DNA from: an uncultured candidatus Porisulfidus sp.
Lineage (GTDB): Bacteria > Pseudomonadota > Gammaproteobacteria > Poriferisulfidales > Oxydemutatoraceae
Length of the DNA stretch: 64,000 nucleotides
Direction of reading: 5' to 3'
Assembly (NCBI GenBank): GCA_965215125.1
Contig: OZ244052.1
Coordinates: forward strand, 256,001 to 320,000
Shown: one piece after another, positions 40,523 through 44,928 of the stretch
Position numbering within the stretch: position 1 is the first letter of the stretch
Layout of the letters: each line of letters opens with the position of its first letter
Made by a program: the position numbers and the translations under genes
Notes under the pieces: model-generated
The model's input: the letters and a program-made list of their open reading frames with translations, nothing else
Database searches by the model: none
Told to the model about the DNA's origin: nothing

Positions 40523-41956
40523 ATGACTATAGAATTAACAAAAGATTGGATCAAAAACTTAAAAACAGAGAAGGCTTATAACCTTTCGAGTCTCTTTTTG
40601 GACAATACCAAACCCAGAGAAGTTCTTTTTATATTGCAAAACCTAGGGCATCTGTCTACTAATTTCGACGATAGTTGTATCTTGCCTTTGGTAACCGATA
40701 AAAACCAGAAGATCCGTCTTTGGTCAATTAAAACATTAGGCAAAACCAAAAAAATAAAAAACCTACATGTGTTAGAAAAAGTAGCATATCGGGATACATC
40801 AACCGAGGTTAGAAGAGAAGCAATTTCCTCTATCGGTAGAATCAAGGATAAAGTGATTATTCCTACTCTAATCAAATTTCTTAACGACGATGATCCTAAA
40901 ATTGTTTTGCAAGCAATTAGAGGGCTTCTAACTTTTAGGACAGAACCTAAAGTCTGCCATGTACTTAAGAAATGTGCAACACATCCCAATGAAACGGTAC
41001 AGAAAGTCATTAAAAAAGAGTTTTTATCGGAAAATAAAACAATACCTAGAGAACAAAACCACCCTCAATCTTATCCTTTCTTAAAAAATGTGGTCGTGTT
41101 GGGCGATGTGAGAAAGACATTGAAGTATGTACCCGATGAGAGTTTTCATCTCACTTTTACATCGCCACCATACTATAACGCGAGAGATTACTCTATCTAC
41201 AAAAGTTATCGTGAGTACTTAGATTTTCTGAAAGAGGTTTTTTCCCTAACTTATAACAAAACCAAAGAAGGTCGTTTTCTAATAGTCAATACATCACCAA
41301 TTATTATTCCTAGAGTAAGCCGTCGGTATTCCAGCAAGCGATACCCCATACCCTTTGATATTCATAATTTTTTAGTGCCGATGGGTTGGGATTTCATAGA
41401 CGATATCGTCTGGGTGAAACCTGAATCCAGCGTCAAAAATAGAAATGCAGGCTTTTTACAGCATAGAAAACCACTTGCATATAAACCGAATACCGTAACC
41501 GAATATCTAATGGTCTATAGAAAAAAAAGCGATAAATTAATAGACTGGAATATCCACCAATACGACTCGAATACCGTTAACGATAGTAAAGTCAAAGATG
41601 GTTATGAAACATCCAATGTGTGGGAAATTGACCCCAAACATAACAAAATTCATTCGGCAGTTTTCCCCGACAGTTTATGCAAACGAGTCATAGAATATTA
41701 TTCCTTCAAAAATGATTTAGTGTTTGACCCGTTCGCCGGAAGCGGCACTTTCGGCAGAGTGGCTAAGTGCCTTAATAGATTTTTTTTCCTTACCGAAAAA
41801 GAATCCAAGTATTTCAATTATATAAAAGCCTCTTTTTCTAAAGAGGGCACTTTGTTTGAGAAAGAAGAAAAGAGAAACTCCTTTCTATGTCTGGATGAAT
41901 TTGGGACTGTTGAAAAAGTGCTGGCATCGCAAAAATCCAACCGCTATGCGCTGTGA
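40523..41956 (+). CDS. HEAT-repeat domain fused to a beta-class DNA methyltransferase (probably N4-C)
   Basis: N-terminal HEAT-like units (IRLWSIKTLG, VRREAISSIG, IVLQAIRGL); TSPPYY, HSAVFP, DPFAGSGT. The C-terminus is replaced by a MITE insertion. Confidence 0.88.
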   Translation: MTIELTKDWIKNLKTEKAYNLSSLFLDNTKPREVLFILQNLGHLSTNFDDSCILPLVTDKNQKIRLWSIKTLGKTKKIKNLHVLEKVAYRDTSTEVRREAISSIGRIKDKVIIPTLIKFLNDDDPKIVLQAIRGLLTFRTEPKVCHVLKKCATHPNETVQKVIKKEFLSENKTIPREQNHPQSYPFLKNVVVLGDVRKTLKYVPDESFHLTFTSPPYYNARDYSIYKSYREYLDFLKEVFSLTYNKTKEGRFLIVNTSPIIIPRVSRRYSSKRYPIPFDIHNFLVPMGWDFIDDIVWVKPESSVKNRNAGFLQHRKPLAYKPNTVTEYLMVYRKKSDKLIDWNIHQYDSNTVNDSKVKDGYETSNVWEIDPKHNKIHSAVFPDSLCKRVIEYYSFKNDLVFDPFAGSGTFGRVAKCLNRFFFLTEKESKYFNYIKASFSKEGTLFEKEEKRNSFLCLDEFGTVEKVLASQKSNRYAL

Positions 41957-42066
41957 ATATTTATAAACCGCCGTAGGGGCGGACTGGCATGATGCCTTAT
42001 TAAAAATCAAGCCGTTTTATTCATTTTTTATCTCCTTTTGTGAGTATCGATTTAGGACGCAAATGC

Positions 42067-42354
42067 TCAACAATAATTCGTGTCAAACGGTTGCTTGTGC
42101 GTGGTGACCCCATAAATAATACGCGTGAGCTTATGAGCGCAAGCAACAATAATCTGCTTTTTAGTTAACTCCGGACGCCGCCGACTTAATTGGTCGGCAA
42201 ATGCACGGATGGTTAGGTTATGCCGACGTGCCGAGAGTGCTGCCATAAATAGGAGGGTGCGCAGGTCGGCATTGCCCTGTTTAGAGATGGGCGTGGGCGA
42301 TGCGCAGTTGCCGGATTGCTTGTGCTTGGGCGTGATGCCGATATAGGCGGCGAG
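42067..42354 (-). pseudogene. IS110 recombinase, C-terminal part
   Basis: LAAYIGITPKHKQSGN...ISKQGNADLRTLLFMAA...KKQIIVACAHKLTRIIYGV...PFD; lacks its own start, so it is missing from the ORF track. Confidence 0.92.
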
Positions 42355-43495
42355 TGTACAATGCCAGATACATATTGGACTCTTTAGAACCTAATCTTTC
42401 CACTAGGAAAAGTACTTTTCCTAGTGGAAAAATACCTCTTAAATCAAAGTAGCCGACATGCAAAACCAGCACATCGGCTACCGCATTACAGGTTTTTATA
42501 AAATAGCCTCTTTTTCCAACAAAACGGAGGCTATGATGGCAACAGATGCCAAACAAAAACTTAATGCATTAGAATTTTGGAACAAACACGGCTTAAACGC
42601 AACCCAAGACTTTGTCGGGGTGAGCCGTTCCACCCTATACCGCTGGAAAAAGTGCTTTGACGAGGGCGGTGTATCCGCTTTGCGAGACGCAAGTAAAGCA
42701 CCTCGGCAGCATCGTCGCCGTAATTGGTCTACTCACATCAGCGATGAGATTAGGCGACTGCGACACAGCTATCCGAATATGGGTGCGCCGAAGATTTATT
42801 ACTTCTTAAAGCCGTGGTGTGATGCACGCGAACTGCAGTGTCCGAAGCCGCGCACCATTGCACGGTTGATTGCCGATGCATCCGACAACATGCGCTGTTC
42901 GCCCCCTAAACTCTCTAAAAGAAAACACAAATGCAAGACTTCTCAACCACGCAACCGTCTCAGCAAAGATGCCAAAGCGCAATTTCCCGGACACTGCGTG
43001 GCTATGGATACTATCCATTATTTCGTTAATCGAACACGCTATTATCTGTTCACTGCGATTGACCACTACAGCCGTTTTGCCGTTGCCATTACCTGCCGAC
43101 GCGCCCACAGTAAAAATGCTGCGACATTCGCAAGATTGGTGGACACGGTATTCCCCGGCAACCTCTCTCAAGTACTGACCGACAACGGGAGCGAGTTTGC
43201 CGGCGACTTCGAGGCTTATCTACAACGACACAACATTAAACACTGTTATACTTATCCTCGTTGCCCGAAAATGAATGCCATAGACGAGAGATTTAACCGT
43301 ACCATTCAGGAGGAGTTTGTAGCACATCATGAGGATATTTTAGTGACCGATTTAGCACAATTTAACGACGTATTATTTGAGTATCTCGGGCGGTATAACT
43401 TCAGGAGACCGCACCAAAGTCTAGCCTATAAAACACCGGCACAACAGCTTGCTTCCTTTTGTCCCCATTTGTCCAATATGTCATGGCATCGTACA
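42355..43495 (+). mobile_element. IS481-family element
   Basis: TIRs TGTACAATGCCAGATACATATTGGAC / revcomp TGTACGATGCCATGACATATTGGAC; 5-bp TSD GCGAG at 42350-42354 and 43496-43500. Confidence 0.93.
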
Positions 43496-43561
43496 GCGAG
43501 TTGCTTTGGATGGCGAAACGTATTATCATCCAGTACTGCACACAGGGCAGCCGCAGTTTGA
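42458..43561 (+). CDS. IS481-family DDE transposase
   Basis: HTH (VSRSTLYRW), AMDT, LTDNGSEF, ERFNRTIQEE, YNFRRPHQSL; the ORF reads through the right TIR. Confidence 0.9.
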   Translation: MQNQHIGYRITGFYKIASFSNKTEAMMATDAKQKLNALEFWNKHGLNATQDFVGVSRSTLYRWKKCFDEGGVSALRDASKAPRQHRRRNWSTHISDEIRRLRHSYPNMGAPKIYYFLKPWCDARELQCPKPRTIARLIADASDNMRCSPPKLSKRKHKCKTSQPRNRLSKDAKAQFPGHCVAMDTIHYFVNRTRYYLFTAIDHYSRFAVAITCRRAHSKNAATFARLVDTVFPGNLSQVLTDNGSEFAGDFEAYLQRHNIKHCYTYPRCPKMNAIDERFNRTIQEEFVAHHEDILVTDLAQFNDVLFEYLGRYNFRRPHQSLAYKTPAQQLASFCPHLSNMSWHRTASCFGWRNVLSSSTAHRAAAV

Positions 43562-44187
43562 GTTCCGATTCCAGGAATGGAACACAGCAACTGGTGAAGC
43601 TGTGTGAGGTGCTCGTCTTGAGCGATGATTTTGTCCATTGAGGCATTAATCTTATCGATCTGCTTCTCATGGTTCTTCAGGCTAGTGGCTGCCACCTTTT
43701 TTTGCTTCGCATCGCGCAGGGTATTAGCGCAATTGCTTAACATCGTACAACACTTGACTAATTCCCTGCGCCATTTCAGTGCGTCGCGCAAAGCTTGCAC
43801 AGCCGGTGAGGGCTTTTGCCAATTGTTTTCAGGCGGGATAGCAAATACGAAGCGTGCGATGATACGCGCATCCACGCGATCGGTTTTACTGCGTATGCCG
43901 AGCGAGTCGCGGAATCTAGCGATCAGCACCGGTGCTGCCACGATGATTGGATGCCCGGCATCATAGCCGGCCATGCACAGGTCTAGTTCAAGACCGCCGG
44001 TCGCCTCAACACAGATGCGACACTGCTGTGCGCGGTGTTTGCTCGTCCAAGCTAACAACTGTTTGATGCCTTGGGCATCACTACTAAATTGTTGCTCGGC
44101 AAAACTATTATCAGTGAATAATAGAGCCGCCTCTAAAGTGTCTTTAGAGACATCAACGCCAATCGTGACGGGTTGTTTGTTTTCCAT
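43496..44187 (-). pseudogene. IS110 recombinase, N-terminal part (DEDD RuvC-like domain)
   Basis: GVDVSK, VEATG, KTDRVDA, LCSIPGIG; joins 42067-42354 in frame to give 324 aa. Confidence 0.93.
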
Positions 44188-44234
44188 AATAAATTACTCC
44201 ATAAGGGTTGGTTAATGAATGAAATACTAGGTAT

Positions 44235-44430
44235 CAAACACAGTTTAGGAAAGTATGACTACGCCGCCCAAACAGATGAATACGAGATCTAAAGTCCCAA
44301 GCTGCCTTTCGAGCTCTATAGTCATAACGCCGGAGGAGTGCTTTTCATACCATCAGGCTTTAATGCCTCGTCCGTCCTGCAGCGTGTCTCCTCCGACTTC
44401 CTAGGCACTGCATCTGCCTAAGCGTTTATC
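44235..44430 (-). ncRNA. Putative IS110 bridge RNA
   Basis: 5' hairpin TAGGCA..TGCCTA; stem GTCGGAGGAG/CTCCTCCGGC enclosing target-matching guides; stem TATGACTA/TAGTCATA enclosing a donor-matching guide. Ends approximate. Confidence 0.72.
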
Positions 44431-44928
44431 TTATATCAAATAAGCCAGGGTTTAATATATCTGTCCGCCCTAAAGTTCCGTTCTGCACAGCCGTAACCGC
44501 TTGCGCCGTATGGTTTTGGTTTCCATAAATCGGGTGGATGAATGTATAAATCTTGCAGATACGACACAACCACCCCGTCAGGCTGCGCCTGCCACCCCTC
44601 CGAAGGAGGGGAATGTACCGTTCCTACAGTTCGTGGATACTTTTTCAACAGTCCCACGCAGCAACCACTCCATGGAAAGGCTTTACATTTTGTACTATGT
44701 ATCAAAGTTCTGCACAATGTCACGCCGTTTGTGCTACTGCAACAAACGGCGGTTCTATCGCGCCTGCCACCCCTCCACAGGAGGGGAATAATACTCTTTA
44801 AACAGTCCCAATTTAAGAACACCCTTAAAGAATGACACTAAGCGAACGTATTGAAAAAATATTTAACGAGATATTCGTTAATTAAACATAAGCTGTTAAT
44901 CGGAAGAATTGCCGTAAAATAATCTCTT

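Follow-up and report, generated by a model that had tools for sequence, protein, structure and literature searches.

In the accounts of Durrant et al. (2024, PMC11208160) and Hiraizumi et al. (2024, PMC11208158), the insertion sequence (IS) IS621 of the IS110 group uses a bridge RNA whose left guides pair with the bottom DNA strand and whose right guides pair with the top one, both covering the core. This core is a dinucleotide, a promoter is formed at the junction of the circularised element, and the targets are of the repetitive extragenic palindromic (REP) type. In IS621 and its close orthologues, the structural paper describes the second core base, T, as almost invariant and as read by the protein backbone. 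A preference for guides paired with both core strands is reported, as is activity of engineered IS621 with AT, GT and TT cores. Bridge recombinases are under development as programmable genome-rearrangement tools, and the characterised ones (IS621, ISCro4/IS622 and ISPpu10) use CT, which limits their sites. According to the published estimate, 85.7% of the IS110-group elements in ISfinder are predicted to encode bridge RNAs, and such an RNA was therefore to be expected in the element described here. This IS110-family element lies on the minus strand of a 64,000-nucleotide (nt) stretch, referred to as the window, from an uncultured candidatus Porisulfidus sp. (contig OZ244052.1, positions 256,001 to 320,000). 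Its left-end region is very probably the bridge (seek) RNA of an insertion sequence that targets a REP-like hairpin with CA as the core. The evidence for this consists of the boundaries of the element, the CA core, the complementarity and co-variation of the guides, a promoter motif at the joined ends and the homology of the recombinase. An earlier note on the same DNA had proposed an IS110-family element with a two-loop, IS621-type bridge RNA in its left end, a REP-like hairpin repeat as the target and a core other than CT. The fold layout, the guide pairing, the recombinase homology and the hairpin found around all compared copies agree with these proposals, whereas the identification of the core as AT did not hold.

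The core dinucleotide and the target hairpin

The comparison was based on 27 elements extracted from four genomes. They were obtained from 30 loci, three of which were dropped for not having the left-end motif (a relative with 32% identity and two fragments of genome G033 with internal stop codons). In G000, the genome of the window and a single 2.22-Mb contig, the left end used as a query was found in 17 places, eight of them at full length, and the flanks of nine copies showed a constant hairpin repeat around all of them. CA is present at both junctions of all 27 elements, and every one of their sites, collected as the earlier note had suggested, is a hairpin with this same boundary. When placed side by side, the left junction reads ...GGA-CA-GAT..., the right junction ...CAT-CA-TGC... 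and the empty site ...GGA-CA-TGC..., with unlike bases flanking CA. The longer form of the empty site is GGGCGGA-CA-TGCCAGTCC, and an example of an empty hairpin is GGGCGGAC-ATGCCA-GTCCGCCC, with a 6-nt loop. The core is CA, and the crossover is located inside the hairpin at the boundary between left arm and loop, C being the last base of the arm and A the first base of the loop.

The same type of element could be drawn with ends one base further in, an AT core and the target GGACAG-AT-GCCA, as in the earlier note, but this version retains next to no likelihood. AT too is present at both junctions in class A and class B copies. Moreover, the strings compared in that note are found on the minus strand where it had placed them (GGACGGACG at 44377-44369, the hairpin at 44368-44355, TGGTAT at 44352-44347, AAGGCAGCTT at 44308-44299 and TTGATT at 42010-42005), and the matches of 7/9 and 8/10 and the single G-U pair quoted for them are arithmetically right. 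An AT core, however, requires an empty site with an 8-nt loop (AGATGCCA), and neither this loop nor the reconstructed target occurred among the 85 strand-counted matches of the hairpin repeat in G000 or among the 150 listed matches in three related genomes. A 6-nt loop was found in 84 of the 85, the other one being a nested 10-nt artefact, and all of the 150 are 22 nt long, which corresponds to the 6-nt loop. In class C relatives the AT frame yields GT at the left junction but AT at the right one, with no common dinucleotide, and an AT core cannot hold there, whereas CA is common to 27/27. Furthermore, both right guides of the RNA end in TG, complementary to CA, in all 27 elements.

Since the dinucleotide common to both junctions is CA, the ends of the element lie one base away from their earlier placement. 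The donor end previously given as AAGGCATCAT stands except for its last T, which is flank and not donor, and the left-guide alignment, made against the wrong target, belongs in another register. With the target corrected to the CA core the guides fit better. For annotation, this case shows that empty sites, rather than the first dinucleotide repeated at the junctions, should decide where such elements end. The circle junction would be expected to read ...AAGGCAT-CA-GATATATT... under the CA core and ...GGCATC-AT-ATATT... under an AT core.

The hairpin is frequent in the relatives, with 183, 229 and 210 occurrences per strand in three related genomes (G034 to G036) and zero for a reversed control pattern; in G033 there were none. 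Nearly all the hairpins listed for G034 and G035 carry ATGTTA or its reverse complement, and ATGTTA is the loop with which the class C guide TAACATG can pair. The hairpin is part of a longer repeat of about 88 nt, of which each genome has tens of copies (41902-41989 and 44464-44640 in the window; genome-wide in G034 to G036), and tandem arrays with a spacing of 84-140 nt are frequent. No orthologous pre-insertion allele of the window site was found in G033, G034, G035 or G036, in which homology to the right flank of the window begins only past its first ~88 nt and the sequence upstream is without such a repeat. Paralogous empty hairpins were therefore used for the comparisons above.

The target guides and their co-variation

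Two guide segments flank the hairpin of the putative target-binding loop (Table 1). The right guide is the unique best 7-mer of about 206 RNA windows in six of six class representatives. The left guide, read in the register of GGACGGACG against GGGCGGACA, is the best window of the RNA in four of six classes. The 27 elements carry seven guide sets and belong to five deep recombinase lineages (58-70% pairwise identity) and a close variant (96-97% amino-acid identity). Across this set the right guide varies together with the loop that the element occupies: TGGTATG is found with CATGCCA or CATATCA, TTGCATG with CATGCAA, TAGCATG with CATGCTA and TAACATG with CATGTTA. The pairing consists of seven Watson-Crick pairs in 19 elements and includes one G-U pair in five, which amounts to full pairing in 24 of the 27; one mismatch is present in the remaining three. 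On the left side, the guide GGACGGAC goes with GGGCGGAC targets, and CGAGGGC goes with a GAGAGGGC target arm in one element (L023). A related genome encodes a 97%-identical recombinase with a different guide, inserted in a hairpin with the matching loop, and in one contig from a sequencing run the differences from the window are found mainly at the right guide.

One copy in G000 (L039, contig C1, ~1998278-1999587) is a mosaic, whose left end shares 100% identity with class A over 283 nt and whose recombinase shares 99% identity with class B. Its target loop, CATATCA, pairs at 7/7 positions with the class A guide and at 5/7 with the class B guide (the latter counted by hand). This case is suggestive only, because the mosaic could postdate the insertion.

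The co-variation also bears on the possibility that the protein recognises the shape or sequence of the hairpin by itself, the matches in the left end having arisen by capture of the repeat or by convergence, without a guiding role. The target loop does read as the bottom strand of the hairpin, arm and then loop, with a hairpin inserted in between, and for this reason a captured repeat fragment could look similar. Every site is indeed a hairpin, and a 2026 preprint on ISPpu10 (10.64898/2026.03.19.712850) reports a contribution of the target stem-loop beyond base pairing. Nevertheless, such recognition by the protein alone seems very unlikely. Four guide variants match their own loops while the remaining RNA is 94% conserved, and among 97%-identical recombinases the loop used follows the guide. 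The mosaic copy points the same way, the donor guide covaries as well, and the homologous IS621 is reported to be RNA-guided in experiments.

Predicted fold of the left-end RNA

The same layout was obtained from a single-sequence fold and from a consensus fold of seven representatives, namely two pseudo-symmetric modules, each made up of a stem, an internal loop and a hairpin. The scaffold shows 94% mean column identity among these representatives, compared with 58-70% identity among the recombinases, and the variable columns are concentrated in the guide segments.

Several points weigh against a bridge RNA, or against parts of the pairing scheme attributed to it. With regard to the fold, which the earlier note had proposed to check, the two-module layout is predicted, but the stability of the whole region is not significant relative to shuffles (z = -1.31; 15 of 200 shuffles are as stable). 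Covariation in the stems is almost nil, with one compensatory pair in 59 predicted pairs, and as the scaffold hardly varies, the secondary structure is mainly an energy prediction combined with analogy. A search of Rfam 15 at E values up to 10 returned nothing relevant, whether Rfam includes a bridge-RNA family being unchecked; its only three matches were spurious (E 0.8-2.3), to a microRNA model on a palindrome in the nested IS described below and to psRNA6. Among the public sequencing runs listed, there was no RNA run that contained the stretch. As for the guides, a constant A-opposite-C mismatch is present in the left guide of the GGACGGAC classes, the left guide of class C has 5 Watson-Crick pairs and one G-U pair of 9, and in classes C and D the left guide is not the best window of the RNA. 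The base of the left guide that faces the second core position is Watson-Crick paired in class B only. Moreover, as the hairpin is palindromic, the right arm in its top strand would suit the left guide equally well, and the assignment of this guide to the bottom strand follows from analogy. Finally, all 27 elements were drawn from a single genus and do not count as independent cases.

Donor guides and the circle junction

The second module contains AAGGCAGC, which resembles the left side of the donor, AAGGCAT-C, and ATCTG, which pairs with CA-GAT of the donor. The left donor guide is nearly invariant, which leaves too little variation to test covariation. In the right donor guide, a T/C difference tracks an A/G difference of the donor in 27/27 elements (T with A, C with G). 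Inspection by eye also suggests possible handshake pairs. In all seven guide sets the right target guide is followed by an invariant A, for which the T at donor position 7 would be a partner. The right donor guide is followed by a T that would find its partner at target position 7 (A, or G by wobble) in six of the seven sets, the other being that of L023.

When the ends are joined with one copy of the core, TTGATT or TTGACT, a 17-nt spacer and TATATT are brought together in all 27 elements, as a motif. A scan of the integrated copy found no sigma-70-like site upstream of the RNA. A promoter completed only at the circle junction had been predicted earlier with a spacing of 15-17 bp; the first part stands, and the spacing is exactly 17 nt to TATATT at 44459-44454. 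Subterminal inverted repeats of 7 bp bracket the donor in 24 of the 27 elements and show a compensatory change between classes, TTTAATA/TATTAAA in some and TTAAATA/TATTTAA in others. A circle or tandem junction (41990 to 44461) was not seen among the joints shown for the run contigs, which, being contigs only, are uninformative either way.

Table 1. Positions in the window of the element, its target halves, the predicted RNA features and the genes
Feature	Position	Strand	Basis or detail
Whole IS110-family element, including one CA core copy	41990..44461	-	Junctions of 9 copies and of 27 elements; empty sites
CA core, left copy (target- and element-derived copies indistinguishable)	44462..44463	-	CA at both junctions in 27/27; empty sites GGA-CA-TGC
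CA core, right copy	41990..41991	-	Junction comparisons
Left target half, REP-like hairpin arm TAGGGCGGA (left arm) as far as the core	44464..44472	-	
Right target half, loop remainder TGCCA and right hairpin arm GTCCGCCCC	41974..41989	-	
5' stem-loop of the putative non-coding RNA	44400..44422	-	Folds; one compensatory pair (A-U to G-C) and one-sided changes
Putative target-binding loop module of 63 nt, with basal stem GGAGGAG/CTCCTCC and a hairpin between the left and right guides	44332..44394	-	Folds
Left target guide GGACGGACG, sense of left target and core, predicted to pair with the bottom strand	44369..44377	-	7 Watson-Crick, 1 G-T and 1 mismatch of 9
Hairpin AGGC-ATTAAA-GCCT between the two target guides	44355..44368	-	Stem invariant in 7/7 class representatives
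Right target guide TGGTATG, pairs with top-strand CATGCCA (core and 5 nt)	44346..44352	-	6 Watson-Crick and 1 G-U
Putative donor-binding loop module of 76 nt, with a basal stem and a hairpin between the left and right donor guides	44253..44328	-	Folds
Left donor guide AAGGCAGCT, compared with donor AAGGCAT-CA	44300..44308	-	7/9 pairs here, 8/9 in class B
Right donor guide ATTCATCTG, pairs with donor top strand CAGATATAT	44273..44281	-	7/9 pairs
-35-like TTGATT in the right end	42005..42010	-	
-10-like TATATT in the left end (element positions 3-8), joined to the -35 only in the circle	44454..44459	-	
Subterminal inverted repeat, right-end arm TTTAATA	41998..42004	-	
Subterminal inverted repeat, left-end arm TATTAAA	44451..44457	-	
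Recombinase gene, N-terminal part, DEDD RuvC-like domain	43496..44187	-	Gene start 44187; cut by the nested insertion
Recombinase gene, C-terminal part to the stop codon, Tnp domain with conserved serine	42067..42349	-	
Nested IS481-like IS, 1146 bp including a single copy of the 6-bp target duplication, outside the bridge system	42350..43495	+	

The recombinase and the nested element

The recombinase matches the Pfam families PF01548 (1.4e-20) and PF02371 (1.3e-24) and the NCBIfam model NF033542, 'IS110 family RNA-guided transposase', with 216 bits against a cut-off of 140. In phmmer searches its residues 8-321, nearly the full length, matched ISCro4 (E = 1.2e-44; PDB 9t56, the best match with a solved structure) and IS621 (E = 2.1e-43). 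The residues D12, E61, D103, D106 and S243 are invariant in seven of seven lineage representatives and lie within motifs that align to ISCro4.

In the window copy the gene is split by a nested IS481-like element, because of which this copy measures 2472 bp and cannot produce its own recombinase. Contigs from four of four public runs omit exactly 42350-43495, with six ambiguous bases, which indicates a nested element of about 1140 bp and a 6-bp target duplication. It contains rve and helix-turn-helix domains, and its best NCBIfam match is IS481, with 192 bits, below the cut-off of 224 bits. Two intact copies of the IS110 element, of 1326 bp and encoding a recombinase of 324 amino acids, are present in G000; their left end is about 273 nt long and their right end about 78 nt, without long terminal inverted repeats. 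One of them (603046-604371) was compared base by base with the window copy minus the nested element, and 0 of 1326 positions differed. As the ends and the RNA region are identical to those of this intact copy, the window copy could still move with a recombinase supplied in trans. The earlier suggestion that the element could be restored by deleting the IS481 insertion is moot, as intact copies already exist in G000 and nothing needs restoring.

The split gene could also be taken to mean that the window copy, like its relatives, is a dead relic, in which the left end has been conserved by recent copying or gene conversion and not by function. Several truncated left-end fragments in G000 and the near identity of copies within a genome fit with this. 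Such an explanation is nonetheless considered very improbable, as intact 324-amino-acid frames occur in all five deep lineages and the matches reach 17 in one related genome. Furthermore, recent copying cannot explain the conservation, since the RNA scaffold is kept across lineages whose proteins differ by 30-40%.

The transposase frame of the nested element (42458-43561, plus strand) continues for 66 nt beyond the element end at 43495 into the IS110 sequence; its last 22 codons and stop codon are thus provided by the flank. In G000 the nested element is found in seven copies at 100% identity, two of them within IS110 copies, and in two copies at 96%. A near-perfect palindrome at 42383-42445, in the end of the nested element, is the source of the spurious microRNA-model matches, on both strands and with E of about 1. 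The composite of the IS110 element and the IS481-like element, with the same nesting position, occurs twice, at 41990-44461 in the window and at 763828-766299 of contig C1 in G000, in different hairpin sites with unrelated flanks. The two composites differ at two of 2472 positions. Either a recombinase acting in trans moved the composite as cargo, or one of the two owes its sequence to conversion by the other.

Truncated left-end pieces were found in G034 (L029), in G035 (L038) and in G000 (contig C1: 521878-521933, 2109565-2109617, 1981282-1981359 and 1402490-1402598). In L029 and L038 the piece is followed by CA and a complete element, while in the G000 pieces starting at 521878 and 2109565 the right half of the hairpin follows directly. 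The joints of L029, L038 and the G000 piece at 2109565 are CA dinucleotides within the left end (after ...GATG and after ...GGAGGAGA), which looks like recombination at pseudo-sites. A 2026 preprint, going by its title, is said to deal with 'half-match recombination' and may bear on these pieces.

Searches for further relatives gave few results. A scan of metagenome contigs with a seven-protein alignment yielded 155 pattern matches, none of which was confirmed, and a scan of species representatives gave three loci, all from one metagenome-assembled genome record. In a sample of 400 genomes of the class, the only relatives outside the genus are 34-36% identical to the recombinase, and the covariation test could therefore not be extended by intermediate relatives. 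One of these more distant genomes, from another genus of the class (G107, contig C1), contains an IS110 relative with 35% identity in five identical copies (L057-L061). Each copy is placed directly 3' of a different hairpin (GTTGGGCT...AGCCCAAC), with junctions compatible with a CT core, as judged without an empty site.

Proposed mechanism and implications

By homology with IS621, a mechanism can be proposed in which transcription of the left end, binding of the RNA by the recombinase and strand exchange follow each other. The element would be excised as a circle, in which the joined right and left ends would form a promoter of the sigma-70 type, TTGATT-17-TATATT, from which the left end would be transcribed. 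In the folded RNA, a 5' stem-loop would be followed by a target-binding and a donor-binding loop. In the target loop, the partner of GGACGGACG would be the left hairpin arm in its bottom strand and that of TGGTATG would be top-strand CATGCCA. In the donor loop, AAGGCAGC and ATCTG would each base-pair with one side of the circle junction, AAGGCAT-CA-GATAT. The DEDD/serine recombinase would then exchange strands at CA, which would lead to insertion at the left stem-loop boundary, GGGCGGA-CA-TGCCAGTCCGCCC.

What distinguishes this system is modest and consists of the CA core, a native right target guide of 7 nt and a crossover inside the hairpin at the boundary of left arm and loop. With a probability put at somewhat below even, the elements represent a genus-restricted clade of natural bridge recombinases that requires or prefers CA, with A as the second core base in place of the almost invariant T of IS621-type enzymes. 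Such a clade would need no RNA pairing at the second core base of the bottom strand and would read the hairpin loop with its 7-nt right guide. If this were the case, target sites closed to bridge editors with CT or GT cores would be opened, the six natural guide sets on a near-identical scaffold would constitute a ready-made reprogramming series, and the two 2.5-kb composites would be examples of natural cargo transposition in trans. With five diverged lineages, six or seven guide sets and hundreds of matching hairpins per genome, the CA-core clade offers a natural data set on reprogramming and is a candidate for a broader core repertoire. The tables of natural IS110 boundaries and cores of Durrant et al. 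may already include CA-core elements.

Comparison with known systems

The closest solved structure is that of ISCro4 / IS622 from Citrobacter rodentium, to which the catalytic motifs align. ISCro4 / IS622 is reported to use CT cores and to have been tested in human cells (Perry et al., 10.1101/2025.05.14.653916). With IS621, as far as it is described in the two papers cited above, the element shares a DEDD and serine recombinase, an RNA located in a long left end and the succession of 5' stem-loop, target loop (63 nt here; nucleotides 34-98 in IS621) and donor loop. The senses of the guides, the dinucleotide core, the sigma-70 promoter at the circle junction and the REP-type targets are also alike. 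The two differ in the core, CA here and CT in IS621, and in the right target guide, which has 7 nt natively here and is given as 4 nt, extendable to 7, in IS621. Furthermore, most left guides here leave the second core base unpaired. At 7 bp, the subterminal inverted repeat is longer than the 2-3 bp reported for the IS110 group.

Other members of the group resemble the element in part. ISPpu10 of Pseudomonas putida (10.64898/2026.03.19.712850) is described as an IS110-group element that inserts only in REP sequences, for which the target hairpin matters and which can move cargo flanked by its ends in trans. Its core is CT, and its stem-loop is reported to lie 5' of the pairing site and to be formed with the complement of the left target, whereas the crossover of the present element is inside the hairpin. 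For ISEc21, Siddiquee et al. (2024, PMC11187229) describe an upstream non-coding region that gives rise to a short seekRNA for circle formation and targeting. ISEc21 is presented there as having no true target duplication, one copy of the repeat belonging to the element, a likeness that holds at the level of the family. ISPpu9, also from P. putida (PMC12288879), is an IS110-family element located in REP sequences and likewise reported with a dinucleotide other than CT, namely AG as opposed to the CA found here; its small RNA gene is placed downstream of the transposase gene. Natural diversity of the core is thus already documented within the family. Given that non-CT cores are in print for ISPpu9 and for engineered IS621, the core of the present element is less of a novelty than the earlier note implied. 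The protein domains, the left and right ends, the two-module fold (as a prediction), the guides (the left target guide in part) and the junction promoter motif of the family were all found in this element, and the CT core was not. With CA at the junctions of all 27 elements and in the empty sites, the element is placed in the wider IS110 family and not in the CT-core subgroup of IS621.

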